Below, piece by piece: positions 1,615 through 64,000 of a stretch of 64,000 nt of DNA; position 1 is the first letter of the stretch, and each line of letters opens with the position of its first letter. Origin of the DNA: an uncultured Acidobacteriota bacterium. GTDB taxonomy: Bacteria; Acidobacteriota; Thermoanaerobaculia; Multivoradales; UBA5704. The position numbers were made by a program, and so were the translations under genes. Location: the NCBI GenBank assembly GCA_963698025.1, contig OY969112.1, positions 1,861,200-1,925,199 on the forward strand. The letters run 5' to 3'. The notes under the pieces were generated by a model, which searched no databases, was not told the DNA's origin, and saw nothing but the letters and a program-made list of their open reading frames with translations.

Positions 1615-2255
1615 GTCGGGGTTCGCAGACCAAGGCTGGCCCGGTCGGACCGGTGCACCTAACGGAAACGGCCGGAGTTCCGAGGATGCCTGGAAAGTAG
1701 AGGTAGCCCTGCAGGAGCGGCGGTTGAGCAGCCTGGACTTCAAACCCAAGGTAGGGCCCAGCCCGATCCCCTCAAGCTTCCCAAGAGGGTGGCTTATCGC
1801 GGAGGATCGATTGCCCTTCGGGCCTGAATGATTCTGCGACTGGGCGATTGCTACGGACCGAGTTACGCCTCCGCTAGGCCAGGCGTTGGGGCCGTCTCCA
1901 AGGCTTCCCAAGCAAGGGTCGAGATCTTTGACAAGCGAAGTCCCTGGGCTGGTGAACAGGTGGGGCGTTACTTCTGCCCTCCCTCTGTCCACTACATATT
2001 ACAAGGCGACTACCCCGCATTCCTGCTTATTGACGGGTAGCGCTACAGGCTGTAACATTGTTTCTTCCATAAGAGAAACGCGTTGTGTTGACCTCGCTTA
2101 CCACCATATCTCTGCCTTACGGCGAGATGCAGTTATAGCGGAAGCTGCCTAACAGACAACCCAAGCGGTCGGCTTAACGTCAGTCATAAGATTATCCGTA
2201 CGAGAGGGCACACTCTTTGCACAAACCACGCATTCGCCACTCTGAAAGGAAATTA

Positions 2256-5200
2256 TTGATCCCGCATATCAAACTTTATGCGGCGATTCTGCTACTCGCT
2301 CTTCCAGCATTGGCACAAACGAGCGGCCTCCCTACATTTCCCAAGCGCTCTGGATATTGGATGAAGCCTATCTCAGAGCAGCTCGGCGTGTGCGATGGCG
2401 GCTCAGTGGCTTGGGCGCAAAGATCGGGGGATCAATATTCAAAGGAACTCGAACTCGTCGACAACGTCGGACGAGTGGTTAACCGATGGACTTTCCCCCT
2501 CTCAATTCGGGATTTTTATCGCACATCTAATTGCACCACTTCATGGGTTCTTTCACGAGATCGTCGCCATATCTTCATTGTAAACAGCTTAACCGATCGG
2601 GAACCCATACCTCTCGCCAATGGGAATGGGATAGATGAAGTACGGCGACTCATTCCAGCTGACGACGGGAGCTTCGCCTGGGTCTATTTCGAAACCCGCA
2701 AACCAGACATCGCTATTGCCATTCGGAGCCCTCAGGGAATCGTATTGCAGGAGATATCAGGGATTCCACCCGACCTGGAGAGTCAAGATTATTCCGCCAT
2801 AGCACAAGGTAAACGACTCCTGGCTATACCCGTCAGAGGAGTAGGGATCTACTTCATAGAGGCGTCGGGTGCCCACAACATTAGCAAGAAAGATCTTTCT
2901 AATGTTTATAGTACTAACACAGGAGAATTGGCTTGGCTTATACCCAGGCTCGATAAGGGCGTATATCTCGTCGATGGCACCGGTCGCCCTCTTAATCAGG
3001 GCGCGCCTTTACTGAAAGATGAGGACGTAGTCCAGGTCTACTCGCGTTTCCGCGAGAGAGACTCGTATGCCTGGGTGCGAACCCAGAGCGATAGACTGTA
3101 CGCATTTGCGCCGATAGAAACTCCTCAAGGTTGGGCGATTCGGCCTCTCAACCATGGACATCCGGTGGCAATCGGCGCACAAACTCTCGCGGTAGATCTC
3201 GCCAGAGTAATTGGTTCAGGGCGAGTGGCTTGGGTGACTTCACAAAGCCGCTTTGCTCCGCCAGGTGCATGGGGAGATATTTATCGTGTCGAGGTCCAAG
3301 GAGACGACATAGCAGTGTCTTCGGTGCCGCGTCAGTACTTTGAAGGTAAGTCCGTCAACACTCTTTTTTGGGACCTTGAAAACCCTTGGCGCTTCTGGGC
3401 CAGGAGCCCAGACCTGTGCCTCTATGAAGTAAGACTACATCCCCAGGGAAAGTCTGAACCTGGTACGGAAGCAGAGCCTGCAAAGGTCTTTGACCACCAC
3501 TCTTCCTGTGTGCTTGTGGAGCAAATTATACCGAGCGGAATTCCTAGTCGATATTGGATCAATGCGACCCCCTCATATTATCTCATGGGGCCAGCCAACG
3601 ACATAACTGAAGCCATAGTCAGCCTGGGGCATGCCAGATTGAGCCTCAAGACCCCCAGAGGGCATCGACTACGCTTCGCAATGCGTGAAGGCTCTTCAAT
3701 CCATGCCAGCCTGAACTGGCCTACCCGTGATGACCATCTAATGGACATGAACCCTGAGACGTCTCGGGAGCGTCCGCGGATCCATATAACGTTCCTTGAC
3801 CCTAGGGATCATCAATCCACTCCTCGAGCCGAAGGTGAAGGGTTCGCAGACAAGGGAGAAGCCAGCATCCTTCTACACACGAACGGAAGCTCACATTGGA
3901 ATGAGACCTATGATATTCAACTTGAATATCACGATCCGCAGACACTGACCAACTTTCGGATACTTTGGCCTGGAGTGACTCTCGCTCCAACATTATACGA
4001 GTTGGTTACTGCGAGCCCTTACTGGAAAGCCCTGTGGCTCCTCGCTCTTCCCATCTTTGCACTACTGCTCGCCATTAATAAGAGTTGGCGGGTTCGACGC
4101 TGGATTCCAGTAGCCGTATCAGCAATTGAGGTACTTATAGCTAGCCGACTCCCAGAACCGATCAAGACAACCCCCTTAGAATTACTTAGCGTCGCAGCAT
4201 GCTGCTCCCTTACAATGCTCCTAGCAGGCCTAGCCTCTCCAGCTTTATTCCGTGAGCTTGCATTGATTCAGCCGTTCCGTCTTCTAGTACCTGCCGCGCT
4301 TCAGTTGCCGCGCTTGCGGCGCCGGGTATGGAAGTCCTACGTAAAAAATGTCCGCATGCTTCTGCAAATTTTTCGAGAAGACGCAAGTAACGAGACCTAC
4401 GTCCCTCTGGCCACTTCGGTAGTTGGCAGCCGACCACCACAAGGATCTTCGGTCGGCTCACAAGCTGACGTGAAAAGCATCGTAACTGTTCTCTCCGCTA
4501 AAGATCCACAACACAGAGCTACTATCCTGATAGAGGCTCCAGGTGGCCGTGGTAAGAGTGCACTCTGGAACGAGCTTTTGGCACGCTGCCTGGATGCTTT
4601 TGAGAATGATCCGCTATGCCCTCTTCCAGTGATTGGTGACCCTCGATGCAGTACTGTAGAGTCGATGGTTGAGTCTGGACTTGGCCGTTTTGGCATCTCG
4701 CCGGACATAACTGCGGCGCAACTAAAGTCCGGCGAGTTCGTTGTCTTCATTGACAATTTGAGCAGCTGTGACCTAGCACCAGCTGATCTTGAGACCTTCT
4801 TTAGAGCTGGCGGGGATAAAACTCGGCTCTGCTTAACCAACCGACCTGATAAAGAATGGCGCGGGCCCGTACGCAGGGCTGACACGTGGATCATTGTTGA
4901 ACCGGAACGACTATCTGATTCTTCTATTTGGGGCTTCGTCGACAATTATGCAATTACTGATGCCATACGAATGAATCGAGATGCAGAGTCCTATACCAAA
5001 CTGGTCAGAGAGAAAGTGGAGAAGTTCCTACCCATCTGCCGCTCAGAGGATGGTTCTTACCTACCACTCTTGGTTCGGCTTTGCACATTGGCCATCGAGC
5101 GTGATATTAGTTCTATTGATGATATTTATCTGAGCGCATTAAGGCGCTTATTAACCCGAAAAGATGCCATGAGCAATCTCGATGTCGAGCGGGTTCTCGT

Positions 5201-5843
5201 CGAAGCAGAGCAAATTGGCATTGAAACCTACTGGCACGAGCACGATCGGCTCTTCCGGTTCGAGCGCACAACACCGGAGCGTACGCAAATAATGCGAGAA
5301 CTGCTCCAAGCAGGCGTAGTAGTGGGGGCAGATCGCACCAAGAGGCTAAACGAGGAGCCCAAACAAGTTCGTTTCTTTCACGACTCTGTTCAGTCCTATC
5401 TTGTTGCACGAGGTCTCCACCGGGCGGGCGATTGGGAATGCTTTCTCCAAGCCGCTGGCGATCCATTCTTCTGCCGAGCGGCTTCGGATTTTATCGGTGG
5501 CACAGGGTCAGAATTATTTCAGATGTGTCTTTATGTTTTTGAAGCAAGCCGTGTTCGCCGACATCTGATCGAAGATTTGCTGAGTTGGGCGGGATGCTAT
5601 TGGGCCACCCTTTCGATTGATGATGTACTCGTCGGATTAACCGAGGAATCGCAAGCCGCAGTTGAAAGGCGTATCTCCACCCTAGTCGGAGCAGGTGAGT
5701 ACCTGCGGATTGCCGTGGAGGTGGTTGCTGCAGAGGACATGCAAGAAGACGGCACTGTTCGACTTGGTCGACTTTATGCAAAGCTTGCCCCAAAAGTGTG
5801 GCAACGAACTTGCGTTGAGGAGAATCGCAACGAAGTTGCTTAA
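2256..5843 (+). CDS. Large membrane-anchored STAND-class (NACHT/NB-ARC-like) P-loop NTPase with an N-terminal periplasmic domain; low-GC, probably horizontally acquired
   Basis: The most plausible start is TTG 2256, with an AGGA ribosome-binding site 5 nt upstream. Alternative starts are TTG 2217 and ATG 2359. A signal peptide (IPHIKLYAAILLLALPALA-QTSG) leads into roughly 560 aa of periplasmic sequence. Two to three transmembrane helices follow (WLLALPIFALLLAI ... SVAACCSLTMLLAGLA). The cytoplasmic part has a Walker A motif APGGRGKSAL, a Walker B motif FVVFIDNL and a TRLCLTNR sensor-like motif, then about 500 aa of helical sequence. GC content is markedly lower than the flanking DNA. Confidence 0.8.
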   Translation: MIPHIKLYAAILLLALPALAQTSGLPTFPKRSGYWMKPISEQLGVCDGGSVAWAQRSGDQYSKELELVDNVGRVVNRWTFPLSIRDFYRTSNCTTSWVLSRDRRHIFIVNSLTDREPIPLANGNGIDEVRRLIPADDGSFAWVYFETRKPDIAIAIRSPQGIVLQEISGIPPDLESQDYSAIAQGKRLLAIPVRGVGIYFIEASGAHNISKKDLSNVYSTNTGELAWLIPRLDKGVYLVDGTGRPLNQGAPLLKDEDVVQVYSRFRERDSYAWVRTQSDRLYAFAPIETPQGWAIRPLNHGHPVAIGAQTLAVDLARVIGSGRVAWVTSQSRFAPPGAWGDIYRVEVQGDDIAVSSVPRQYFEGKSVNTLFWDLENPWRFWARSPDLCLYEVRLHPQGKSEPGTEAEPAKVFDHHSSCVLVEQIIPSGIPSRYWINATPSYYLMGPANDITEAIVSLGHARLSLKTPRGHRLRFAMREGSSIHASLNWPTRDDHLMDMNPETSRERPRIHITFLDPRDHQSTPRAEGEGFADKGEASILLHTNGSSHWNETYDIQLEYHDPQTLTNFRILWPGVTLAPTLYELVTASPYWKALWLLALPIFALLLAINKSWRVRRWIPVAVSAIEVLIASRLPEPIKTTPLELLSVAACCSLTMLLAGLASPALFRELALIQPFRLLVPAALQLPRLRRRVWKSYVKNVRMLLQIFREDASNETYVPLATSVVGSRPPQGSSVGSQADVKSIVTVLSAKDPQHRATILIEAPGGRGKSALWNELLARCLDAFENDPLCPLPVIGDPRCSTVESMVESGLGRFGISPDITAAQLKSGEFVVFIDNLSSCDLAPADLETFFRAGGDKTRLCLTNRPDKEWRGPVRRADTWIIVEPERLSDSSIWGFVDNYAITDAIRMNRDAESYTKLVREKVEKFLPICRSEDGSYLPLLVRLCTLAIERDISSIDDIYLSALRRLLTRKDAMSNLDVERVLVEAEQIGIETYWHEHDRLFRFERTTPERTQIMRELLQAGVVVGADRTKRLNEEPKQVRFFHDSVQSYLVARGLHRAGDWECFLQAAGDPFFCRAASDFIGGTGSELFQMCLYVFEASRVRRHLIEDLLSWAGCYWATLSIDDVLVGLTEESQAAVERRISTLVGAGEYLRIAVEVVAAEDMQEDGTVRLGRLYAKLAPKVWQRTCVEENRNEVA

Positions 5844-6133
5844 ATCACTCCGGCACCCGGGGCAGAAAGATCCAGTGTGAAGGCTCATGGGAAGCCAATC
5901 ATGGATTCCGGTCCTGCTCCAGCTCTCAGCCTGCCAGGTTCCGTGGTGGCTCAAGGGCCAACACCGTGCGGGCAAGGGTACATTGTCGCATTGAACCAGG
6001 GAGTACGTAACGCTACAGACGCGGCGGGAGGACACCCCAACGCTGAACGGCAGAAGAACGGTCAGCCAAAGGGAGTCCTCCTGAGCGCGATCAGATTATT
6101 TTCACTCATCACGATCATAGGCTCGGTGAGTGA

Positions 6134-9210: not shown

Positions 9211-9375
9211 TTGAAGAAGCAGACGAAGATCCAGAAGCTCGTGCTCAAGAAGGAAACGATGGTCAGCTTGCAGGATGTGACCGGCGGCGCTGTTAATAGC
9301 TATATCAACGACACGGTTTATCGTCCCGCCCCGACAGAGTATCGGTGTGCGACCGACGGCTGCGGGTACGCCTGA
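9211..9375 (+). CDS. RiPP / bacteriocin-like precursor peptide A with a double-glycine leader (54 aa)
   Basis: The ribosome-binding site AAGGAGG is 7 nt upstream of a TTG start. The leader is LKKQTKIQKLVLKKETMVSLQDVTGG and the core is AVNSYINDTVYRPAPTEYRCATDGCGYA. The leader motif is shared with the peptides at 54515 and 57872. Confidence 0.6.
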   Translation: MKKQTKIQKLVLKKETMVSLQDVTGGAVNSYINDTVYRPAPTEYRCATDGCGYA

Positions 9376-9501
9376 TCCTTCAGGTGGCCGCCTCCGGATA
9401 GTTCCTTCCGATCCGGCGAAGGTCGTGGCAAGAGCCGGCGAATCGCCCCCTCCGACCTTCGCCTTTATCCACCCTTCCGAACGGCAGGCCGCGAGGGGCC
9501 G

Positions 9502-26733: not shown

Positions 26734-27280
26734 GGCTCGTCCCCTGGAGCAGATGGCCTTCCGCCCGGCGGAAAGCCTCTTCGGCTCCCCTGAGGTCGGC
26801 AGCGACCCGCCGGGCGTGGCCGATGACCGTCCAGCATCGCCCCCGCGCGTCGGCGAGCAGCGGCTCGCCGTAGCAGGCGGCGTCGAGCGACTCGACGAGC
26901 GTGAGGGCCAGGGCCGCCAGGCGCTCCCCCTGCCCGGGATCGTCGAAACTGTCGCCGTAGCCCTTGCGGAGGAGCAGCTCGCAGAGGGGAAAATTGCGGA
27001 AGCGCCGGCTGTTGCGCGCCAGCATCTCCCGCCGCCCTGGCGGATGGCGCAGCAGCTCGGCGAACAGCGCGGGCGCCTCGTCCCTCTCCCGCGCCGCGGC
27101 CTGGATGAAAGGGAGGAGACCCGCCAGCACGCCGTCCACGGTGCGGCCAATCTCCATCTCCGACGGCTGCCAGGTGAGCAACCGGGCCTCCAGCTCCGGG
27201 GAGGCGTTTTGCTTCGAGATCTCGGGCTCGGAATCGAGTGTCGACATCATCACGACCTGTTCTTCGTTTCGTAGAATCAA
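26666..27280 (-). CDS. Hypothetical protein, paralogous to the N-terminal domain of the zf-HC2/TPR protein at 58492
   Basis: LLRHPPGRREMLARNSRRFRNFPLCELLLRKG aligns with LARHSHERRLALVRTTRRFASWGLCELLCRES, and GAEEAFRRAE aligns with GAEEAFSMSD. The 3' end overlaps the convergent HDAC gene by 68 nt. The start is TTG 27280 or ATG 27250. Confidence 0.5.
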   Translation of the reverse strand: MILRNEEQVVMMSTLDSEPEISKQNASPELEARLLTWQPSEMEIGRTVDGVLAGLLPFIQAAARERDEAPALFAELLRHPPGRREMLARNSRRFRNFPLCELLLRKGYGDSFDDPGQGERLAALALTLVESLDAACYGEPLLADARGRCWTVIGHARRVAADLRGAEEAFRRAEGHLLQGTSLTVARRRAGRPLRLPAVRTPRR

Positions 27281-47213: not shown

Positions 47214-48228
47214 GTGTAGGGGCGCAGCATGCTGCGCCCTTTTGCTGCGCCCTTTTGCTGCGCCCTTTTTGCTGCGCCCTTTTGCTGCGCCCTTTTGCTG
47301 CGCCTTTCAACGGTCCGGTCCAGGAAAAAGGGCGCAGCATGCTGCGCCCCTACATACGGAATAGAGAAAGCAGACCTGCATGAGGGCGGACAGAGCGGAG
47401 ATGAGGATCTTGCCGGCGGGCCGGGTCCGGCATTCGATCCGTTGGCAGGGGTACGATTACACGAGCGCGGGTTGGTACTTCGTCACCCTGTGCGCCCAGG
47501 GAAGGGAGTGCCTGTTCGGCGAAGTGCGGGATGGAGCGGTCTTCCCGAGCGAGAGCGGACGGCTCGTGCAATCCTGCTGGGAGGCGATTCCCTCCCATTT
47601 TTCCCAAGCCGAGCTCGATGCCTGGGTCCTGATGCCCAATCACCTGCACGGCATCCTGGCGATCCGTCGCAACTCCCAAGGTGTAGGGGCGCAGCATGCT
47701 GCGCCCTCTCCTCCGGCACGCCGCCCGCCCTTCGTAAACTCTGGAGCCTTCCTCCCCCGCTCCTCACCGCTTCCATCGAACGTCTCTCCGGGTTCCCTGA
47801 GCGCGATCATCCGATCGTTCAAATCGGCGAGCACCCGGGAAGCCAACAAGGTGCGAGGAACGGCCGGCGTGACGATCTGGCAGCGCAACTACTTCGAGCA
47901 CGTGATCCGGGACGACAACGAGTTGGAGAGGATCCGCGCCTACATTCAGGAGAACCCATCCCGCTGGGAGGATGACCAGGAGAACCCTGCCAAGGCTTTG
48001 AAGCCTCCTACCGATCCTTTCCCCAAGGCGTAGGGGCGCAGCATGCTGCGCCCGCTCAACGGTCCGGCCCATGTAGGGGCGCAGCATGCTGCGCCCTTTT
48101 ACTGCGCCCTTTTGCTGCGCCCTTTTGCTGCGCCCTTTTGCTGCGCCCTTTTGCTGCGCCCCTTTTCCTGCGCCCTTTTTCCTGGACCGGACCGTTGAAA
48201 GGGCGCAGCATGCTGCGCCCCTACGCCT
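47214..48228 (+). mobile_element. RAYT (REP-associated tyrosine transposase, IS200/IS605-like Y1 HuH) unit flanked by REP family A palindromes containing tandem 13-mers
   Basis: The left structure (47214-47356) and the right structures (48031-48228) are built from GTAGGGGCGCAGCATGCTGCGCCCCTAC palindromes. Each encloses 6-7 tandem copies of TGCTGCGCCCTTT. The RAYT CDS lies between them. Confidence 0.8.
47380..48033 (+). CDS. REP-associated tyrosine transposase (RAYT, IS200/IS605 TnpA-like)
   Basis: The RAYT motifs are IRWQGYDYTSAGWYFVT, the HuH motif LMPNHLHGIL, and the catalytic Tyr region TIWQRNYFEHVIRD. A REP copy (47686-47711) sits in-frame inside the gene and encodes ...GVGAQHAAP... Confidence 0.85.
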   Translation: MRADRAEMRILPAGRVRHSIRWQGYDYTSAGWYFVTLCAQGRECLFGEVRDGAVFPSESGRLVQSCWEAIPSHFSQAELDAWVLMPNHLHGILAIRRNSQGVGAQHAAPSPPARRPPFVNSGAFLPRSSPLPSNVSPGSLSAIIRSFKSASTREANKVRGTAGVTIWQRNYFEHVIRDDNELERIRAYIQENPSRWEDDQENPAKALKPPTDPFPKA

Positions 48229-53002: not shown

Positions 53003-53039
53003 GGTTTGCCAGTCCGCCCCATCCGGACGACGCGCCGTT

Positions 53040-53110
53040 GAGGGCGACCGCAGGTCGCCCCTACAACCGCGGCCGGGATCTGTTGTAGGGGCGACCTGCG
53101 GTCGCCCTCA
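53040..53110. repeat. REP family B inverted pair
   Basis: Same unit as at 32445. It lies directly upstream of the helicase gene. Confidence 0.85.
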
Positions 53111-53196
53111 ACGGCGCCGTTACCGGATCGTCCCGCTCCACGAACGCTCAACCAAATGGTTGACAATACCCTCTCACCGACCCTATCCTCAACCAC

Positions 53197-54159: not shown

Positions 54160-54320
54160 GGGATTAGCAGGCTCCGCTGTTGCAGGTAGTAAAAGTCCCG
54201 CAACCGATGACGGTGGCCCTCCCGCGACCTGTTCGAGGCCGCTTTCGAGATTGATCAGGGTCTCCTCCTTCCCCAGTACCAGCTTCTGTCCCCGGCGGTA
54301 CAACGAGCAACATGCGGCCC
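54160..54320 (-). pseudogene. Relic of a fourth GG-leader precursor peptide, disrupted by frameshifts
   Basis: On the minus strand, one frame reads QKLVLGKEETLINLESGLEQVAGG, which is leader-like. A second frame, shifted +2, continues as ATVIGCGTFTTCNSGAC followed by a stop, which is core-like. The only ATG is in the core frame. Confidence 0.35.
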
Positions 54321-54514: not shown

Positions 54515-54652
54515 ATGAAGAAGGCGAGCGTGAAGAAGATGGTGCTGAACAAGGAGACGCTACGGGGCCTGGAGCCCTCCTCGCTTGAGCAGATCTTAGG
54601 CGGGATGGATGACTCCGGCGCGCAAACCTGCCTGAACGCTGGCTGCTTATAA
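54515..54652 (+). CDS. RiPP / bacteriocin-like precursor peptide B with a double-glycine leader (45 aa)
   Basis: The ribosome-binding site AGGAAGGA precedes the ATG. The leader is MKKASVKKMVLNKETLRGLEPSSLEQILGG and the core is MDDSGAQTCLNAGCL. Confidence 0.6.
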   Translation: MKKASVKKMVLNKETLRGLEPSSLEQILGGMDDSGAQTCLNAGCL

Positions 54653-54800: not shown

Positions 54801-55007
54801 ATGAAGAGAAAGATGCTCGCCCTCGCCATCCTGCTCGGAGCCACCGTTTTCGCCTCCTCGGTCCCCCGTGCCGAGGCTACGTTCTCTTCCGAATGCGGTG
54901 CCCCCTTTTGCAGGTACACGAGCACCGTGTGCTACTGCTCGGCGAGCAGCGAGCACCCGGGCTGGGGAACCACCTGCGGCCAGTGGAAGATCGTGTGTTA
55001 CCAGTAA
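54801..55007 (+). CDS. Small secreted Cys-rich protein (68 aa, Sec signal peptide, 8 Cys)
   Basis: The ribosome-binding site is AAGGAGAG. The signal peptide MKRKMLALAILLGATVFASSVPRAEA is followed by the mature part TFSSECGAPFCRYTSTVCYCSASSEHPGWGTTCGQWKIVCYQ. The 3' tail is duplicated out of frame at 55008-55060 (AATCGGWKIACR). Confidence 0.6.
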   Translation: MKRKMLALAILLGATVFASSVPRAEATFSSECGAPFCRYTSTVCYCSASSEHPGWGTTCGQWKIVCYQ

Positions 55008-55924: not shown

Positions 55925-56385
55925 GGCCTTAGAAGGCGTTCATATATACACTTCGTCGATTTTTATATACGCGAGCCTCACCTGGGCATCGGCGGAGGTC
56001 TTCTCTATATACGAATTGCTCCTGGATATATACAAAACACCGCCAATGAGGGCGGCAACCCCGATTTTTGGCGAATCAGCCTCTCCGGAAAGCTCTCCAA
56101 GGTCTCTGGATATATATAAAGCGCACAAAAATAGTGTTCCCGGAGGCTTGCCGACCTTTTTTTGAGGCATCTCTATATATTCGGAGCAGATTTGTATATA
56201 GGATTGGCTGCTTGGACCCCTTCGAGGGGGACTCTGTATATATTTTTTTCCGTTTTATATATAAAAAGAGGCGCCGGAATCCCTGCGAGCCCCTCAAAAG
56301 GCCGAGTCAGGGCTGCCGGAGCTCTCTCCAGGACAACTCCGTATATATTTTCCTGAGCTTTATATATAAAAAAGGCTCGTGGAAT
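55925..56385. repeat. AT-rich TATATA-box array (at least 11 copies), including two ~45-nt palindromic units (GTATATATTTTT..CC...TTTATATATAAAAA)
   Basis: TATATA(C/T) cores occur at about 55933, 55962, 56010, 56027, 56107, 56175, 56198, 56237, 56262, 56344 and 56366. The surrounding genome is about 70 % GC. No credible ORF is present. Confidence 0.7.
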
Positions 56386-56659
56386 GCTCGCGACGCCCCA
56401 TGCGAGCCTCCGAGTGCCGCCTCACCGCCTTCGGCTTCGCCGAATGAGTGCCCGGCCCCTCTTCCCCCGGGAACTGACCGAGGAGATGGCGGAGATCTTC
56501 CGGGCCCGGGACGTCCACCGCGAGACCCTGGCCGCCCTCGCCGTCTTCCAGGCCGCCGCCGCCCTCGACGTCGCCACCGCCGACCTGGCCCGCGATCTCG
56601 CGGCCTACCTCACCCGCGCCCGTCTGGACCCCGAACTGCGCTTCGAGCGGGAGCGCTGA
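56384..56659 (+). pseudogene. C-terminal fragment (about 70 aa) of the zf-HC2/TPR gene family
   Basis: LTEEMAEIFRARDVHRETLAALAVFQAAAALDVATADLARDLAAYLTRARLDPELRFERER is nearly identical to the C-termini of the proteins at 58492 and 60191. The preceding 19 aa are unrelated. Confidence 0.5.
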
Positions 56660-57195
56660 GCCCGCCCGGCTCGGGGAGCCACGTTTCGGTCCCCGACGGC
56701 TCGGCACCGCTGCCGGTTCGACCGGGGTGTCCGTGGCCCGCCGCGACCTCATCCCTATCCCCTTCTCCTAAAAGGAGAAGGGACGTCTCCGAAGCGTGTG
56801 GCCCGTAGGGTGCGCTGTGCGCACCCCGCTCCCCGCCCCCGCCCTGCAAGGGCGGACGTTGCCCAGCCTGGGTGGCAACCCACCCTCTTACATACAAGTC
56901 GCTGATCTTTGGATTCGGCTGCTCAAGGCAGGAATTCCGGACGCCCGCCCGCAGGGCGGATTTATCCAGCCTGGGGTGTCAACCCCAGGAAGGCGGCCCC
57001 AAGATCGACAAGCCCCGCAGGGCCGGCATGTCTTTGCCGATCGAAGCTCCCGTCGGGGTGTCGGCCCTGCGGGGCTTCCAGGGATGGGAGGGCACCCAGT
57101 CCTGGGGTTCGCTGTTCCTCAGGTTCGGTCAGCAGCCTGCTGACCAAGCCGGAGCGGCTAGCGGTCTCTGCCGGCTGGGCCAGGGCACCTTCCGC

Positions 57196-57540
57196 ATGCC
57201 GGTGACGGACAGCTACCAGCGTCGTTGCGCGGTCACGGGAGAGAAGGCCCTGCCGGTCCTCGACGCCGCCCACATCCTGCCGGTCGGCAAGGGGGGCCAG
57301 CACCGCCTCGACAACAGCCTCCTCCTCCGCACCGACGTCCACCGCCTCTACGACAAGGGCTACGTCACCGTCACCCCGGACGGCCACTTCCTCGTCAGCC
57401 GCCGCCTCAAGGACGACTTCGACAACGGCGAGCCCTACATGCCCTTCCATGGCCAGCGGATCTGGATGCCTGGAGACCCGGGGAGCCAGCCGAACCGGGA
57501 GACGCTGGAGTGGCATGCGGAGGGGGTGTTTTGGGGGTGA
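57196..57540 (+). CDS. HNH nuclease family protein (HNH_2 / restriction-endonuclease-like)
   Basis: The motifs are RRCAVTGEKALPVLDAAHILPV ... LLLRTDVHRLYDKGYVTV. The start is ATG 57196 (MPVTDSYQ). The upstream part of the listed ORF is repeat DNA. Confidence 0.7.
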   Translation: MPVTDSYQRRCAVTGEKALPVLDAAHILPVGKGGQHRLDNSLLLRTDVHRLYDKGYVTVTPDGHFLVSRRLKDDFDNGEPYMPFHGQRIWMPGDPGSQPNRETLEWHAEGVFWG

Positions 57541-57671
57541 GGGGCGCTGATCGGCACTGAATCTCAGACTAGCCGCACGACTCGCCTGGCACCTAATCCC
57601 CCCCCCCGCGGCGGCGAAGCGCCGGGGACCTCTGATGGCGGGTCCAGCCGGCCAATCTCGCATGCCAACAA

Positions 57672-57872
57672 TCAGCAGTTGCAGTTCGTGAATCCGTCGC
57701 ACGACGGACACGTTGCCCAGTCACAATAGGTATAGCCACAGCTATTACAGCCACTCGCTCCAGGGCAACCAGACGTGCCGGGAGGGTTACCACCCTCAAT
57801 CCCACGCAGAGTAGAATCTGTCAAGTTTCGCAATGTCTCTTTGCTTAGAATGAGCTTTCTTACTTTTCGCAT
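57672..57872 (-). CDS. RiPP precursor peptide C: double-glycine leader plus a Cys-rich (10 Cys) Ser/Thr-containing core, lanthipeptide-like (66 aa)
   Basis: The ribosome-binding site GGAG lies 8 nt upstream of the ATG. The leader is MRKVRKLILSKETLRNLTDSTLRGIEGG and the core is NPPGTSGCPGASGCNSCGYTYCDWATCPSCDGFTNCNC. The gene is AT-rich relative to its surroundings. Confidence 0.65.
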   Translation of the reverse strand: MRKVRKLILSKETLRNLTDSTLRGIEGGNPPGTSGCPGASGCNSCGYTYCDWATCPSCDGFTNCNC

Positions 57873-58089
57873 ACCTATCTCCTCTGTGAGCAGGTTAACT
57901 CTTCGGGCGATCGGACCGCGATTCGAGTGGCACCTCGCCTCGCCACTGAATCCGGACTGCAATCCCCGCGGGATTGTGTCGTGCACCCCTCATGCCCGAT
58001 CGGACGATCTCCTGCACCCTTTCTGATGACGGCCCGCTCGCGGCCAGGATGGCTGGCGGGACGCGGCCGTCCGAAAGGAGCCGTGCGCC

Positions 58090-58377
58090 ATGCGCCTTCG
58101 CCGTACCCTCGTGGTCCTCGTCCTGGCCGCCCTGACCTCCCTCTCTCCCGCGCTCGCCCACACCCGTCCAGCACGGGCGGAGCGAACCGTCGCCGCCCCC
58201 GGCCTCGTCGATCTCCTCCTCGACCAGCTCGCCCGGATCGAGGCGAAGGTCCTGGGAACAGAGGCCGGGGCCAGGCTCGACCCGAGCGGTGCCAAGAGCG
58301 ATATCGGATCGAGCCTCGAACCGGATGGCACTCGGAACGACAGCGGATCCAGCCTCGATCCGGACGGCGCGAAGTAG
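58090..58377 (+). CDS. Small secreted repeat protein (hypothetical)
   Basis: The ribosome-binding site is AAGGAG. A signal peptide is followed by tandem SSLEPDG / SSLDPDG repeats. Confidence 0.5.
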   Translation: MRLRRTLVVLVLAALTSLSPALAHTRPARAERTVAAPGLVDLLLDQLARIEAKVLGTEAGARLDPSGAKSDIGSSLEPDGTRNDSGSSLDPDGAK

Positions 58378-58491: not shown

Positions 58492-59817
58492 TTGGAACAC
58501 CACCACCTGAACCGGGCCGTACTGGAACGCCTCCTGGCCGAGGACCGCACCGAGGACGAGAACCGCAGCCTCCTCCACCTGATCGCCGTCTGCCCGGAGT
58601 GCCGCAAGGCCGGCGGCTACCTACTCGATCTCCACCGGGCCGGCGCCCTGCCGCTCCACTTCGGTCCGGTGGACGTGGCCCTCGCTCTCTCGCGGGCCGA
58701 GGCGCCGCGCCTCTGGGAACGCCTCGCGCGCCACTCCCACGAGCGCCGCCTCGCCCTCGTCCGCACCACCCGGCGCTTCGCGAGTTGGGGACTCTGTGAG
58801 CTGCTCTGCCGGGAGAGCCGGAAAGCCGCCACGGACGATCCGATCCAGACAGCCCAATTGGCGGAGCTCGCCGTGCTCGTCGCCGACGCCCTCGAGGAGG
58901 GCTCGCCCTACGAGGCCGGCTGGGTCTACCAGCTCCGCGCCTTCGCCTGGGCCCATTTCGGTCACGCCCGCAGGATCGGAGGAGATTTTCAGGGAGCGGA
59001 GGAGGCGTTTTCGATGTCTGATCCCTGGTGGGAAGCGGGCGACGAATCCGTGGGAGACGCCCTCGGTTATGGCTTGGACATCCTTGCCTTGAAGGCCTCG
59101 CTTCGCACCGACCAACGCCGCTTCCCTGAAGCCCTGGCCCTACTCGACCGTGCATTCGCCGGATACCTCCACGGCGATCCCGAGTATCGTGACCGGCATC
59201 TGGCAGGTCGGATTCTCGTCAAGAAGGCACATGTCCTCACCCAGTTAACGGAGCCCGTACGAGCGATCCTTGCCCTCCAGGAAGCCGGGAAGCTCGTGGA
59301 CCCCGACCGCGATCCCCGCCTGCGCCTCTGCCTCCGGCACAACCTGCTGGACAACCTGGCGACGGCGGGACGGTTCGCGGAAGCGCGGGATCTGCTGCCT
59401 GAGGTGAAGGCGCTCTGCGGATCGGCCGGGAGCCGTCTCGACGAGATCCGCCTCCTCTGGGTGGAAGGCCGGATCGCGGCCGGACTGGGCGACCGGAGCA
59501 TGGCCCGGCAAGCCTTCGGCGACGCGCGGCGGGAGTTCGCCACCCGCGGAATGAGCTATGACGCGGCGCTGATCTCCCTCGAGCTGGCCGTCCTCCTGAT
59601 CGACGAAGGGGAGACGGCGGAGGTGCGGGAGCTGGCCGAAGAGATGACGGAGATCTTCCGGGCTCGGGACGTCCATCGCGAGACCCTGGCCGCCCTCGCC
59701 GTCTTCCAGGCCGCCGCCGCTCTCGACGCCGCCACCGTCGACCTGGCCCGCGACCTCGCCGCCTACCTCACCCGCGCCCGCCTGGACCCCGAGCTGCGCT
59801 TCGAGCGGGAGCGCTGA
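58492..59817 (+). CDS. Putative regulator with an N-terminal zf-HC2 motif (anti-sigma-factor-like) and a C-terminal TPR-like helical domain
   Basis: The start is TTG. H-x3-C-x2-C is present (HLIAVCPEC). TPR-like repeats occupy the C-terminus. The N-terminal domain is paralogous to the 26666 ORF, and the C-terminal domain is paralogous to the 60191 ORF and the 56384 fragment. Confidence 0.75.
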   Translation: MEHHHLNRAVLERLLAEDRTEDENRSLLHLIAVCPECRKAGGYLLDLHRAGALPLHFGPVDVALALSRAEAPRLWERLARHSHERRLALVRTTRRFASWGLCELLCRESRKAATDDPIQTAQLAELAVLVADALEEGSPYEAGWVYQLRAFAWAHFGHARRIGGDFQGAEEAFSMSDPWWEAGDESVGDALGYGLDILALKASLRTDQRRFPEALALLDRAFAGYLHGDPEYRDRHLAGRILVKKAHVLTQLTEPVRAILALQEAGKLVDPDRDPRLRLCLRHNLLDNLATAGRFAEARDLLPEVKALCGSAGSRLDEIRLLWVEGRIAAGLGDRSMARQAFGDARREFATRGMSYDAALISLELAVLLIDEGETAEVRELAEEMTEIFRARDVHRETLAALAVFQAAAALDAATVDLARDLAAYLTRARLDPELRFERER

Positions 59818-59962
59818 GCTAGCCGCACGACTTGCCTGGCACCTCGTCCCCCAGCACCTCGTCCCAGCGAGCTTCCGCCGTACCACACGGCGAACGCCGC
59901 TCTCCACTTGCCATCCAGTCTTTCTATATATATAATCAAATAAACTACAGGAGGACTTCAAA

Positions 59963-60169
59963 ATGAAACGTCGCGCCATGCTGATCTTCGGAATTCTCGC
60001 CGTGACCTCGATGACCTGGGCGGCAGCGCCTTCCCCGGCGATGGGCGATGCCAGCAAGCGCCAGCCCCTGTGCAACTGTAATGACGACTCGGATTGCCCG
60101 GCTGGCCAAGTTTGCAGCCCGGTGCGTTGTTCGGAATCAGGGGGTTTCTTCTCGGGAGTCTGCCGGTAA
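59963..60169 (+). CDS. Small secreted Cys-rich protein (68 aa, Sec signal peptide)
   Basis: The ribosome-binding site is AGGAGGA. The signal peptide MKRRAMLIFGILAVTSMTWAAAPSPA is followed by the mature part MGDASKRQPLCNCNDDSDCPAGQVCSPVRCSESGGFFSGVCR. The gene is AT-rich. Confidence 0.6.
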   Translation: MKRRAMLIFGILAVTSMTWAAAPSPAMGDASKRQPLCNCNDDSDCPAGQVCSPVRCSESGGFFSGVCR

Positions 60170-60190: not shown

Positions 60191-61165
60191 GTGCCGGCAA
60201 GCGCCCTCCCTTACCTGCCTAACACCCCCGGCGGGCAGCGCGGCGGGCGGCCCCTGGCCCTCCGCCGCGACCCGGTGATCGCCCCGCCGTTGCGAGTCAC
60301 CTGGCACCTGGTTTCTGGGCGAGTCGGAGGAGATATCAGGGGATCGGAGGAGACATTCTCCATGTCCGATCCCTGGTGGGAAGCGGGCGAAGAATTCGTC
60401 GGAGATGCCCTCGGGTATGGCCTCGACATCCTGGCTTTGAAGGCGCCGCTTCGCAGCGACCAGAGCCGCTTTCCCGAGGCTCTTGCGCTGCTCGACCACG
60501 CCCTCGCCGGATACTTCCACGGCGATCCCGAATACCGCGACCGGCATCTGGCAGGACGGGTCCTCATCAAGAAGGCCTATGTCTTTATCCGTATGGCGGA
60601 GCCCGAACAGGCGCTCCTCATTCTCCGGGAAGCCGAGGGGCTCGTGGTCCCCGACCGCGAGCCCCGTCTACTTCTCTGCCTCCGGCACAACCTGCCGGAC
60701 AACCTGGCGTCGGCGGGACGGTTCACGGAGGCGCGGGAGCTGCTGCCCGAGGTAAAGGCGCTCTGCGGATCGGCCGGGAGCCGTCTTGACGAGATCCGCC
60801 TCCGCTGGGTGGAAGGCCGGATCGCGGCCGGACTAGGCGACCGGAACATGGCCCGGCAGGCCTTCGGCGACGCGCGGCGGGAGTTCGCCACCCGCGGAAT
60901 GGGCTATGACGCGGCGCTGATCTCCCTGGAGCTGGCCGTCCTCCTGATCGACGAAGGGGAGACGGCGGAGGTGCGGGAGCTGGCCGAAGAGATGACGGAG
61001 ATCTTCCGGGCCCGGGACGTCCACCGCGAGACCCTGGCCGCCCTCGCCGTCTTCCAGGCCGCCGCCGCCCTCGACGCCGCCACCGCCGACCTGGCCCGCG
61101 ACCTCGCCGCCTACCTCACCCGCGCCCGTCTGGACCCCGAGCTGCGCTTCGAGCGGGAGCGCTGA
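60191..61165 (+). CDS. N-terminally truncated paralog of the zf-HC2/TPR protein (TPR-like domain only)
   Basis: It is homologous to 58492 from the GGD(F/I)(Q/R)G(A/S)EE(A/T)FSMSDPWW block onward. The GTG start and the first ~50 aa are unrelated. It may be a pseudogene. Confidence 0.55.
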   Translation: MPASALPYLPNTPGGQRGGRPLALRRDPVIAPPLRVTWHLVSGRVGGDIRGSEETFSMSDPWWEAGEEFVGDALGYGLDILALKAPLRSDQSRFPEALALLDHALAGYFHGDPEYRDRHLAGRVLIKKAYVFIRMAEPEQALLILREAEGLVVPDREPRLLLCLRHNLPDNLASAGRFTEARELLPEVKALCGSAGSRLDEIRLRWVEGRIAAGLGDRNMARQAFGDARREFATRGMGYDAALISLELAVLLIDEGETAEVRELAEEMTEIFRARDVHRETLAALAVFQAAAALDAATADLARDLAAYLTRARLDPELRFERER

Positions 61166-61710: not shown

Positions 61711-61779
61711 GAGGGCGACCACAGGTCGCCCTACACCCGAGGTCGAGATCTGGTGTAGGGGCGACCTGCGGTCGCCCTC
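61711..61779. repeat. REP family B inverted pair (slightly diverged)
   Basis: GAGGGCGACCACAGGTCGCCCTACAC ... GGTGTAGGGGCGACCTGCGGTCGCCCTC. Confidence 0.8.
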
Positions 61780-62027
61780 GACGGCACGGTGTCCGGATGA
61801 ATCCAGCTTGGCAGCCCTGCCCGCGGGCGCCCTCCCTCTCCTCTGTGCCGGGACCGAGGGTGAGGATTCGAAGGGCAGCCGGCCCCGAGCGTCAGGCCGG
61901 GAGCGAAATTTCAACATCTACCCATGGAGTAATGAGCGGGATCGCTGTTCCTCAGGTTCGGTCAGCAGCCTGCTGACCAAGCCGGAGCGGCTAGCAGTCT
62001 CTGCCGGCTGGGCCAGGCACCTTCCAC

Positions 62028-62376
62028 ATGCCGGTGACGGACAGCTACCAGCGTCGTTGCGCGGCACGGGAGGGAAGGCCCTGCCGGTCCTGGACGCCGA
62101 CCACATCCCGCCGGTCGGCAAAGGGGGGCCAGCACCGCCTCGACAACAGCCTCCTCCTCCGCACCGACGTCCACCGCCTCTACGACAAGTCACCCGGACG
62201 GCCGCTTCCTCGTCAGCCGCCGCCTCAAGGACGACTTCGACAACGGCGAGCCCTACATGCCCTTCCACGGCCAGCGCATCTGGATGCCCGGAGACCCCCT
62301 GAGCCAGCCGAACCGGGAGGCGCTGGAGTGGCATGCGGAGGGGGGCTTTTGGGGTGAGGGACGCTTTGTCTTCTGA
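62028..62376 (+). pseudogene. Frameshifted duplicate of the HNH nuclease gene
   Basis: It is about 90 % identical to 57196-57540, but a 13-nt deletion at about 62190 and an earlier indel break the frame. The homology block starts at 61937. Confidence 0.55.
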
Positions 62377-62543
62377 GTCCACTCCGAACCGCATGGCACT
62401 TCGCTCTTCCCGCTCCCTCTCCCGCCCCCGTCCCTTCTGGTTCCTGTGGCTTGGGCACCTCCTTGCTTGCCGCTTCTCTATAGGCTAGGATTAAGAAACC
62501 GTTAGATAATTGCTGTTTAGGACAAGTTTCCCAAGCGGGGTTC

Positions 62544-63716
62544 ATGCTGGGGTATCGATTGGACGTTCATAGCACTGTGGTCGAGACTAGATCCGAGGAA
62601 AGAGCGGAGCGTGCTATCGCAGCTCTCGCAGCCGACTGGGAACGCCAAGAAGGCGTGCTGCGGAGATCTCAAGTCGAGAGATTAATCTTGAAGCGTTGTC
62701 TCTCGGTTGAGGAGGGAGTATACGTCTTTAAAGGCTTAGCCCGGCGGGGTATCGAGCTGGAAAACCCGGCCCGCAGCGATTCCACGAACGATGACAAGGC
62801 AACGTATCAAGGGTCCGAACAGAAGGGCGGAATTCTTGCAGAAGAGTTCTTGCCTTATTATTTCTCGCAACGCCTCTTATCTGCTCAAGAGGAGATCGAC
62901 CTCGGTCGAACAATACAGCTTGGTATCCTCGCACGGGCCGACCTCGAATCCGGCTTCGACAGCGACGAGCTTCGTAGCTTCGTCGCTCTAGGTGAGCGCG
63001 CACGGAACCGCCTCATCGAGGCTAATTTGAGGCTTGTCTTTTCAATGGCCCAAAAGTTCAAAGGGCAGACTGGCCTCGACTTAGGAGATCTCGTCCAAGA
63101 AGGCACTCTTGGACTACTCCGTGCAGCAGAACTCTTCGACCCTGACCTTGGCCTTAGGTTCTCGACGTATGCAACGCATTGGATTCGCCAAGGAATATGC
63201 AGGGGCGCGGATAGCTTCGGAGAGACTATTAGGCTACCAGTCCATCGAATGGATAGCATTCGCAAACTTAGACGCGCAAAACGAATCATTTCCATTGAGC
63301 TTGGCCGCCAGGCCACTATTCGAGAGATCGCCGAGGCCCTCGACTGGACACCTGAAAGAGTCGCCTACATTCAGTACTTATCCTCCGAACGGATCGTCTC
63401 GCTAGAGACACCCCTAGATAGCGAGAATAACTTGGTCTGGGGCGATACGATCGAAAGCCCAATACCCAACCCAGAGCAGCTATACATAGAGTCCGAACTC
63501 AGATACTTGATAGGCAACCTTCTCGACACCCTTACACCTCGTCAGCGAGCGGTTCTAATACGTCGATTTGGCCTGAGCAATGGCCACGAAGAGACGCTGC
63601 AAAGGATCGGCGATGACTTTTGTGTCTCTCGGGAGCGGATACGGCAGATCGAGACCAAGGCCCTGAAACGCGCGGCACCGCGAGCCAGATCAATGGGCAT
63701 CGAGCAGTTTCTTTAA
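62544..63716 (+). CDS. Sigma-70 family RNA polymerase sigma factor (regions 2, 3 and 4) with a ~110-aa N-terminal extension; lower GC than surroundings
   Basis: Region 2 is [13 protein letters not shown] ... [19 protein letters not shown], with [10 protein letters not shown] nearby. Region 4 is [23 protein letters not shown]. Confidence 0.85.
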
Positions 63717-63737
63717 CTTGGCAAGGCGGAGGACGGA

Positions 63738-64000
63738 ATGAGCGATAGTGAATATCATGCGACCGTGCGCTTCCTGGATTGGCTCGAGTCTCGCGTTATC
63801 GCCGCCGGCCGAGGCGATAACATTTTAACCTCCGATAATGACCCTTCGGGACGCTTCTGGCTCGGCCGGCTCGCGTCCGAGGAAAAGGTCGCCCGCATGG
63901 CGAGCGGCGACCGTGGCGAACGACTGGAACCATGTGCTGTTGGAATTAGGATTCAACCTGCCGGAATTGATCCCTGGAAGTTTGAAGTCAGAGTATTGGC
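63738..64000 (+). CDS. Hypothetical protein (5' partial at window end), low GC
   Basis: The ribosome-binding site is AGGCGGAGGA. It reads MSDSEYHATVRFLDWLESRV and runs off the end of the window. Confidence 0.4.
   Translation, partial: MSDSEYHATVRFLDWLESRVIAAGRGDNILTSDNDPSGRFWLGRLASEEKVARMASGDRGERLEPCAVGIRIQPAGIDPWKFEVRVL

Follow-up and report, generated by a model that had tools for sequence, protein, structure and literature searches.

A probable orphan class I lanthipeptide-type precursor between repeated TPR/HNH units of an uncultured Acidobacteriota bacterium

A 66-residue precursor, here called peptide C, is encoded on the minus strand at positions 57672–57872 of a 64,000-nt stretch of DNA (the window) from contig OY969112.1 of an uncultured Acidobacteriota bacterium (GCA_963698025.1). 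Peptide C is probably a genuine class I LanA-type precursor and an orphan, probably acquired horizontally, that lies in a variable slot between repeated TPR/HNH units. It would work like a LanA if a synthetase is encoded elsewhere in the genome. Leader homology and the gene context of relatives carry this reading.

Precursor gene and leader family

The peptide C gene runs from an ATG (57870–57872) to a TGA (57672–57674), with leader codons at 57789–57872 and core codons at 57675–57788. A Shine-Dalgarno-like GAGGAGA (57878–57884, minus strand) was read 5 nt 5′ of the start codon. The translation consists of a 28-residue leader, MRKVRKLILSKETLRNLTDSTLRGIEGG, and a 38-residue core, NPPGTSGCPGASGCNSCGYTYCDWATCPSCDGFTNCNC, and matches exactly the open reading frame (ORF), leader, and core given in a first-pass annotation of this DNA. 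The 10 core cysteines reported there are 8 on recount, alongside 8 Ser/Thr residues. The leader carries the motif L7-x-L9-x-K11-x5-L17 (LxLxKx5L), ends in Gly27-Gly28, and keeps all conserved leader positions of its family. It also has the layout of a double-glycine leader, with Leu at −12, Leu at −7, and Ile at −4 before the Gly-Gly.

NCBIfam model NF038153 (lant_leader_L1a, product "class I lanthipeptide"; curated cut-off 22 bits) matches residues 1–28 at 23.9 bits (E 3.4e-5). An independent leader hidden Markov model (HMM), built solely from 49 unique LanB/LanC-linked leaders, scores peptide C at 40.3 bits (E 9.4e-12), higher than any other of the window's 1055 six-frame ORFs. The LxLxKx5L/GG motif has been described for class I LanAs, in clusters with a C39 protease (Walker et al. 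2020, BMC Genomics, PMC7268733). Given the E-value of the leader HMM across the whole six-frame ORF set, the presence of a ribosome-binding site, and a Cys/Ser/Thr core after the Gly-Gly, a chance ORF was rejected.

Searching 1.84 billion representative proteins with phmmer gave 24 matches to peptide C at E up to 1e-3, of which 23 are peptides of 57–101 residues that share the leader, while their Cys/Ser/Thr-rich cores are unrelated; core hypervariability is usual in this leader family. When 29 peptides of this kind were combined into a profile, it recovered 1939 proteins (E up to 1), some of them named "class I lanthipeptide" or "natural product precursor" in their sources. NF038153 is matched by 28 of the 29 aligned relatives. 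TIGR04149, a leader model for radical-SAM-modified Gly-Gly RiPPs (peptides made on the ribosome and modified after translation), is also touched by 11 of the 29; peptide C does not match it, and NF038153 is its sole match even at E up to 10. Peptide C and 28 relatives had no match in Pfam, in a copy without the precomputed family PF28317. No match to peptide C was returned by a word-index protein search, look-ups of identical proteins for peptide C, the sigma factor of the window, and a DUF1508 protein were negative, and a leader-pattern scan found no identical copy in GTDB representative genomes or JGI metagenomes. An orthologue of the core was not found in any collection searched (best match, 46% identity). 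No relative was found among viral contigs, which leaves a phage origin unsupported. Leader homology and the context of relatives, described below, make membership of peptide C in the known class I LxLxKx5L/GG precursor family well supported by sequence comparison.

Genomic context of relatives

A scan of GTDB genomes placed a family peptide between LanC and LanB in two Paenibacillus loci, followed by a C39-ABC transporter identified with Pfam. JGI metagenomes yielded 80 loci with a family peptide. With the Paenibacillus enzymes as queries, tblastn located LanC shortly downstream of the peptide in 52 metagenome loci and LanB in 32. The usual order in enzyme-linked loci is precursor, LanC, LanB, and C39-ABC exporter. 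LanB/LanC are present in 23 of the 25 metagenomic relatives that have at least 3 kb downstream of the peptide. The lanthipeptide-type precursor proposed in the first-pass annotation is thus supported, by this context and by the NF038153 homology, and its type was already known. Wherever relatives have adjacent maturation enzymes, these are lanthionine-forming enzymes. The closest relative (loci L013/L031) is 46% identical to peptide C and has a similar, very Cys-rich core dense in TC/SC pairs. The genes that come after it in L031 are those for LanC (with an internal stop), LanB, and the exporter. Six different precursors lie beside one LanB/LanC pair in each of two further loci (L053 and L090), so the enzymes accept varied cores.

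One metagenome locus, L012 (2321–10180), has a family precursor beside a Trans_reg_C+TPR regulator, a 655-residue Pfam-less protein, an APH-like kinase, a HopA1-like protein, and a LanC-like protein. An APH-like kinase/HopA1-like lyase pair performs class V dehydration (PMC9486802). By its gene content, L012 is a putative pairing of a class I-type leader with class V-type dehydration genes and a LanC-like cyclase.

The window extends 57.7 kb to the left of the peptide C gene and 6.1 kb to the right. Its genes were mapped by codon-position GC, 30 large ORFs were scanned with Pfam, and tblastn was run with LanB, LanC, exporter, APH, and HopA1 queries. Neither an adjacent LanB dehydratase and LanC cyclase nor an exporter was found: the scanned ORFs include no Peptidase_C39 or ABC_membrane gene, and tblastn gave no match in the window. 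The window also has no GMC oxidase gene and no Radical_SAM gene, and together with the missing TIGR04149 match this gives no sign of a radical-SAM Gly-Gly RiPP. Because family membership is supported and adjacent LanB/LanC and exporter genes are missing, peptide C is filed as an orphan member.

Other family members are orphans too. Comparing all orphan loci against one another gave no maturase-like shared neighbor and only the TPR family in common, and Pfam scans of neighbors in L048, L003, and L062 gave no RiPP enzyme. Loci L003 and L007 each hold three family precursors. The third precursor of the Holophagales locus L003 (8643–8837) is split over two frames, MKKKTVRKLVLSKE... then ...LSADDLGAVVGGISEIGCAISNQQTCGCPTGTC...; either the gene is a pseudogene with a frameshift or the long-read assembly is in error.

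Core residues and proposed maturation

Within the peptide C core, 7 of the 8 Cys have a Ser/Thr no more than 2 residues upstream (p = 0.003, 100,000 core shuffles), in agreement with the Ser/Thr-before-Cys pairing described earlier. Only 2 of the 8 have one no more than 2 residues downstream, so the pairing is directional. Two SGC motifs are present. Across the family, Ser/Thr residues equal or outnumber Cys in all 89 unique cores. The Cys count is odd in 34 of the 89, orphans included, and such cores cannot be fully disulfide-paired.

Every enzymatic step proposed for peptide C in the source organism is modeled on the family. The 66-residue prepeptide would be translated and its leader bound by a lanthionine synthetase encoded elsewhere, most likely a class I LanB and LanC; a split set of kinase, HopA1-like lyase, and LanC-like protein, as in L012, is a possible alternative. 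Core Ser/Thr residues would then be dehydrated, by the class I route through glutamyl-tRNA-dependent glutamylation and elimination. The 8 Cys could add to the dehydro residues to form up to 8 (methyl)lanthionine rings. A C39-peptidase ABC exporter would cut after Gly27-Gly28 and export the 38-residue product.

Codon usage and the variable slot

The peptide C gene has 51% GC against a window mean of 68%. GC at third codon positions (GC3) is 0.51, compared with 0.81–0.85 for the adjoining HNH nuclease, small secreted protein, and TPR genes, so the low GC is a codon effect. The lower GC had been noted in the first-pass annotation as consistent with recent acquisition or strong codon bias. The value is the lowest among 82 family genes in high-GC loci (mean 0.83), and the other two family precursors of the window use native codons, which together support a recent import. 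The gene was probably acquired horizontally.

The gene and its upstream region occupy a 360-bp low-GC patch (57603–57962, about 50–54% GC), delimited by GC profile, a repeat (D9), and blastn against contig L006. The left bound is a 34-nt repeat (57569–57602) with a second copy at 59819–59852, and the right bound at 57963 is the start of the unit formed by the small secreted protein and TPR genes. After 59852, at the paralogous position, lies another small Cys-rich ORF (59963–60169). Contig L006, 94% identical by blastn, joins window position 56472 straight to 57963 and has the HNH gene after the TPR gene. The segment of TPR fragment, HNH gene, and peptide gene is therefore arranged differently in a close relative, and since L006 carries the same blocks in another order, the TPR/HNH array recombines. 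L006 ends within the HNH gene, and an orthologue of peptide C may lie beyond that end. In locus L007, whose TPR protein is 83% identical, the equivalent slot holds two other family precursors, with a third about 1 kb further upstream.

Several repeated or mobile elements were observed in the same part of the window. A 47-nt palindromic element with 89% complementary arms lies at 53021–53128, with a related copy 8.6 kb away (61729–61799), and an IS200-like Y1 transposase fragment spans 47365–48033; they look like a repetitive extragenic palindromic-like element with its transposase. Eight TATATAYA sites at 55943–56368, spaced by about 84, 84, 82, 42, 21, and 105 bp, lie in a patch of 45–50% GC that is conserved in L006 and has no Rfam match. 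None are expected in shuffles. The sole other occurrence in the window is at 59925–59934, about 30 nt upstream of the Cys-rich ORF at 59963–60169. Rfam gave no known structured RNA on either strand of 53–64 kb.

Other precursors and neighboring genes

The window holds three family precursors and one relic, with a shared leader type and unrelated cores. The second precursor (MKKASVKKMVLNKETLRGLEPSSLEQILGG / MDDSGAQTCLNAGCL; 54515–54652, plus strand) matches NF038153 at 26 bits and the leader HMM at 25.9 bits (E 2.9e-7), and has native codons (GC3 0.83). The third (9211–9377, plus strand) is more divergent, with a TTG start and the ribosome-binding site GAAGGAGG (...KIQKLVLKKETMVSLQDVTGG / AVNSYINDTVYRPAPTEYRCATDGCGYA). 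It scores 13.9–16 bits with the leader HMM and 19.9 bits with NF038153, under the cut-off of 22, and its GC3 is 0.76. A leader-like sequence on the minus strand (QKLVLGKEETLINLESGLEQVAGG; approximately 54217–54290) has no start codon and no Cys, gives 9–15 bits with the leader HMM (E 0.003–0.04), and is probably a decayed copy. Three family precursors in one window would fit dispersed substrates served in trans.

Two ORFs of 68 residues (54801–55007 and 59963–60169, both plus strand), each with a Sec-type signal peptide and a mature part rich in Cys, lie in slots of the kind that also holds peptide C. The latter matches the Myxo_Cys_RPT and fulvocin-related models weakly, and a similar ORF adjoins the family peptides of L003.

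Divergent from the peptide C gene is a gene for a 441-residue TPR protein (58492–59817, plus strand). Partial paralogues at 56468–56659, 60191–61165, and 26771–27112 bring the window to one full and three partial copies in 64 kb. More than 900 homologues (at least 913) were found at 54–97% identity, and those with names are called Thermoanaerobaculia or Acidobacteriota; acidobacterial relatives of peptide C in the GTDB scan suggest a host of that kind as well. The AlphaFold model (pLDDT 91) is an all-helical TPR superhelix, and its best Foldseek matches in the PDB are the LGN and Rap TPR domains at a generic TM of about 0.5. Across 38 homologues, His3, His5, Cys34, and Cys37 never vary and His29 hardly does. 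The motif spacing is H-x4-C-x2-C, against H-x3-C-x2-C for zinc-binding anti-sigma factors, and a similar motif occurs in a 28%-identical homologue in L048. The motif may form a zinc site, unrecognized by the Pfam zf-HC2 model. The neighbors named in the first-pass annotation, an HNH nuclease and a zf-HC2/TPR regulator, are confirmed as an HNH gene and a TPR protein, while zf-HC2 has no match in Pfam and no anti-sigma structure was matched by sequence. No helix-turn-helix (HTH) domain was found in the TPR protein by Pfam or NCBIfam. PADLOC gave no match for it, so a reading of the TPR/HNH unit as a known defense system is unsupported. TPR homologues lie beside orphan family peptides at four loci (the window, L003, L007, and L048), and no other neighbor is common to the orphan loci. 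The association is partial, as no family peptide was found within 10 kb in two further distinct TPR-bearing regions, L093/L094 (one region) and L095. A 471-residue ORF of L004 was tried as a TPR homologue and rejected.

Directly upstream of the TPR gene is a 95-residue signal-peptide ORF, orf95 (58090–58377, plus strand), with LDPxG-type repeats (LDPSGAK / LEPDGTR / LDPDGAK). It has no Pfam, NCBIfam, or PADLOC match. A small ORF of similar size is found at the same position in L006, L007, L093, and L095; similarity was compared for L007 alone (65% identity). On the other side of the peptide C gene is an HNH_2 nuclease gene (56872–57540, plus strand; PF13391, E 1.6e-9) that matches PADLOC HNH and the C-terminal region of the NCBIfam PT-DNA restriction endonuclease and is associated with repeats D3–D8. 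A degraded second HNH copy lies at about 61938–62354.

A low-GC (52–58%) island at 62400–64000 runs off the window end and encodes a 390-residue sigma-70 factor. Its best match is MzaA, the sigma factor of the MZA anti-phage system, at 243 bits, below the equivalog cut-off of 800. With the PT-DNA-restriction-like HNH gene, a helicase, and this MzaA-like factor, genes near peptide C look defense-related. In another island (about 2000–6000, 50–53% GC), a 1217-residue ORF (2190–5843, plus strand) has no Pfam, NCBIfam, or PADLOC match.

Alternative explanations

Several observations weigh against peptide C acting as a LanA. No LanB, LanC, LanM, radical-SAM enzyme, kinase/HopA1 pair, or C39-ABC is encoded in the 64-kb window. 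The Acidobacteriota-type relatives with long flanks (L003, L004/L009–11, L005, L007, L008, and L048) are all orphans, and no LanB/LanC-linked locus is assignable to Acidobacteriota, the sole named cluster being from Streptosporangiaceae. Consensus promoter and terminator sites were sought at the peptide C gene and not found; the fold 3′ of the gene is no better than shuffles (z = 0.17). The 8 Cys are an even number and could form four disulfides. The spacing, described in the first-pass annotation as typical of lanthionine substrates, is only partly so: the nearest upstream Ser/Thr is most often 3 residues away in LanB/LanC-linked relatives (107 of 218 Cys), versus 1–2 in peptide C, although 1–2 spacing does occur in the closest such relative, L013/L031. 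The foreign codon usage could mean a stray, poorly expressed import, and Sec-signal Cys-rich ORFs share the neighborhood.

One alternative is a peptide that is unmodified or carries disulfides only, exported and cleaved by a C39-ABC protein, with four disulfides formed outside the cytoplasm. Such a product would be a class II-like bacteriocin or a signal, and the TPR protein next to it may sense or regulate it. This is considered unlikely. The canonical double-glycine layout of the leader and the even Cys count would suit it, LanB/LanC are never near the Acidobacteriota-type relatives, and Sec-signal Cys-rich ORFs fill the same slots. TPR homologues recur beside orphan peptides, and the modeled TPR fold may resemble the peptide-binding TPR domains of LGN and Rap. 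However, the Foldseek matches are generic TPR matches, the TPR family is highly multicopy so that adjacency can arise by chance, and L093/L094 and L095 have the TPR gene with no family peptide. The leader is most similar to LanB/LanC-linked leaders, a disulfide peptide has no use for directional Ser/Thr-to-Cys pairing, the family often has odd Cys counts, and the window is also without an exporter for such a product. It is quite doubtful that the gene is instead a stranded, non-functional import that recombination or horizontal transfer delivered without its enzymes, that is still intact only through its recent arrival, and that gives no mature product. The outlying GC3, the 360-bp patch inside a rearranging TPR/HNH repeat array, the L006 junction without the peptide C segment, and the lack of an orthologue in the collections searched fit this view, as do the decayed leader relic and the absence of a promoter-like site. 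Against it, the ORF is intact, with a good Shine-Dalgarno sequence and all conserved leader positions; the downstream end of L006 leaves room for an orthologue; and the native codons of the two other window precursors indicate that the host keeps the family. Other RiPP chemistry on the same leader type is very improbable, whether thioethers made by a radical-SAM enzyme or LanM combined with thiazole-forming tailoring of the kind seen in other Thermoanaerobaculia. Some relatives do touch TIGR04149, and class II LanM clusters of Thermoanaerobaculia act on Cys-rich cores, with GMC-oxidase thiazoles at Gly-Cys motifs (PMC13083261); the peptide C core has two SGC motifs. Peptide C nevertheless matches NF038153 alone, the ThaA/TheA leaders are of an unrelated mersacidin type, and the window has no radical-SAM, LanM, or GMC oxidase gene. 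The orphan LanA-type precursor is retained as the probable identity of peptide C.

Comparison with known systems

Peptide C shares its leader motif, Gly-Gly end, and Cys/Ser/Thr-rich hypervariable core with class I LxLxKx5L/GG LanAs (NF038153; PMC7268733). It differs from them in that LanB, LanC, and exporter genes are missing over 57.7 kb to one side and 6.1 kb to the other, in its Acidobacteriota-type host (not Bacteroidetes, Firmicutes, or Actinomycetota) and foreign codons, and in an unusually Cys-dense core with Ser/Thr 1–2 residues before Cys. Lanthionine chemistry has been shown experimentally in Thermoanaerobaculia (PMC13083261). The tha/the clusters of that class, in which LanM acts with a GMC oxidase that makes thiazoles (Nature 2026, PMC13083261), also have a Cys-rich core, but their leader is of the mersacidin type (MKKQQVIRAWKDEEYLQSL...) and their enzymes are clustered. 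Class V lanthipeptides, such as cacaoidin with its CaoK kinase and CaoY HopA1-like lyase (PMC9486802), are approached through L012, where the leader type of peptide C stands beside APH-like kinase, HopA1-like, and LanC-like genes. This comparison covers the enzyme genes, none of which is in the window.

The class II prochlorosins combine many dispersed precursors, one conserved leader, and one promiscuous synthetase, ProcM. The three window precursors likewise share a leader, have unrelated cores, and adjoin no synthetase. Prochlorosins have a Nif11-type leader and a different enzyme class, and for peptide C the likeness is a hypothesis. Double-glycine (class II) bacteriocins and other peptidase-ABC substrates would be comparable in their small secreted product and in a Gly-Gly leader whose positions −4, −7, and −12 are hydrophobic. 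Unlike them, peptide C has a leader specifically of the LanB/LanC-linked type, paired Ser/Thr and Cys, and no adjacent exporter or immunity gene. RRNPP pairs (Rap, NprR, PlcR) also join a small peptide gene to a cytoplasmic TPR protein, and Rap is among the Foldseek matches. In contrast to these receptors, the window TPR protein lacks both an HTH and a phosphatase domain, the host is of Gram-negative type, and the association is partial. Peptide C itself has a Gly-Gly leader and a 38-residue Cys-rich core and is not a Sec-exported propeptide giving a short pheromone. An RRNPP receptor/propeptide pair was thus not recognized, with TPR adjacency in four loci and none in L093/L094 (one region) or L095.

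Significance

The family is already labeled "class I lanthipeptide" by the NCBI annotation pipeline. The peptide C core sequence is new, Cys-dense and with no orthologue found, and is a candidate scaffold for lanthipeptide engineering. Precursors distant from their synthetase escape cluster-based mining (Walker et al., PMC7268733), and RiPP mining with antiSMASH or RODEO would miss peptide C for want of a nearby enzyme. Orphan precursors of this sort seem to be numerous in Acidobacteriota-type genomes, and their dispersed, cassette-like placement between TPR units in Acidobacteriota is possibly a new aspect.

A broader and speculative proposal is that in Acidobacteriota of Thermoanaerobaculia-like type, LxLxKx5L/GG precursors left their biosynthetic clusters and became dispersed, horizontally exchanged cassettes. 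They would sit in slots between units of a small secreted repeat protein and a TPR protein with the His/Cys motif. One remote promiscuous lanthionine synthetase might serve them all, in a class I equivalent of the prochlorosin system, or the peptides might have been recruited by the TPR proteins as ligands or partners in regulation. If there is no remote synthetase, their recurrence next to TPR proteins would suggest that lanthipeptide-type leaders are used for something else. If a remote synthetase does serve the orphans, little-cultured soil bacteria would hold a combinatorial lanthipeptide library like that of marine Prochlorococcus.

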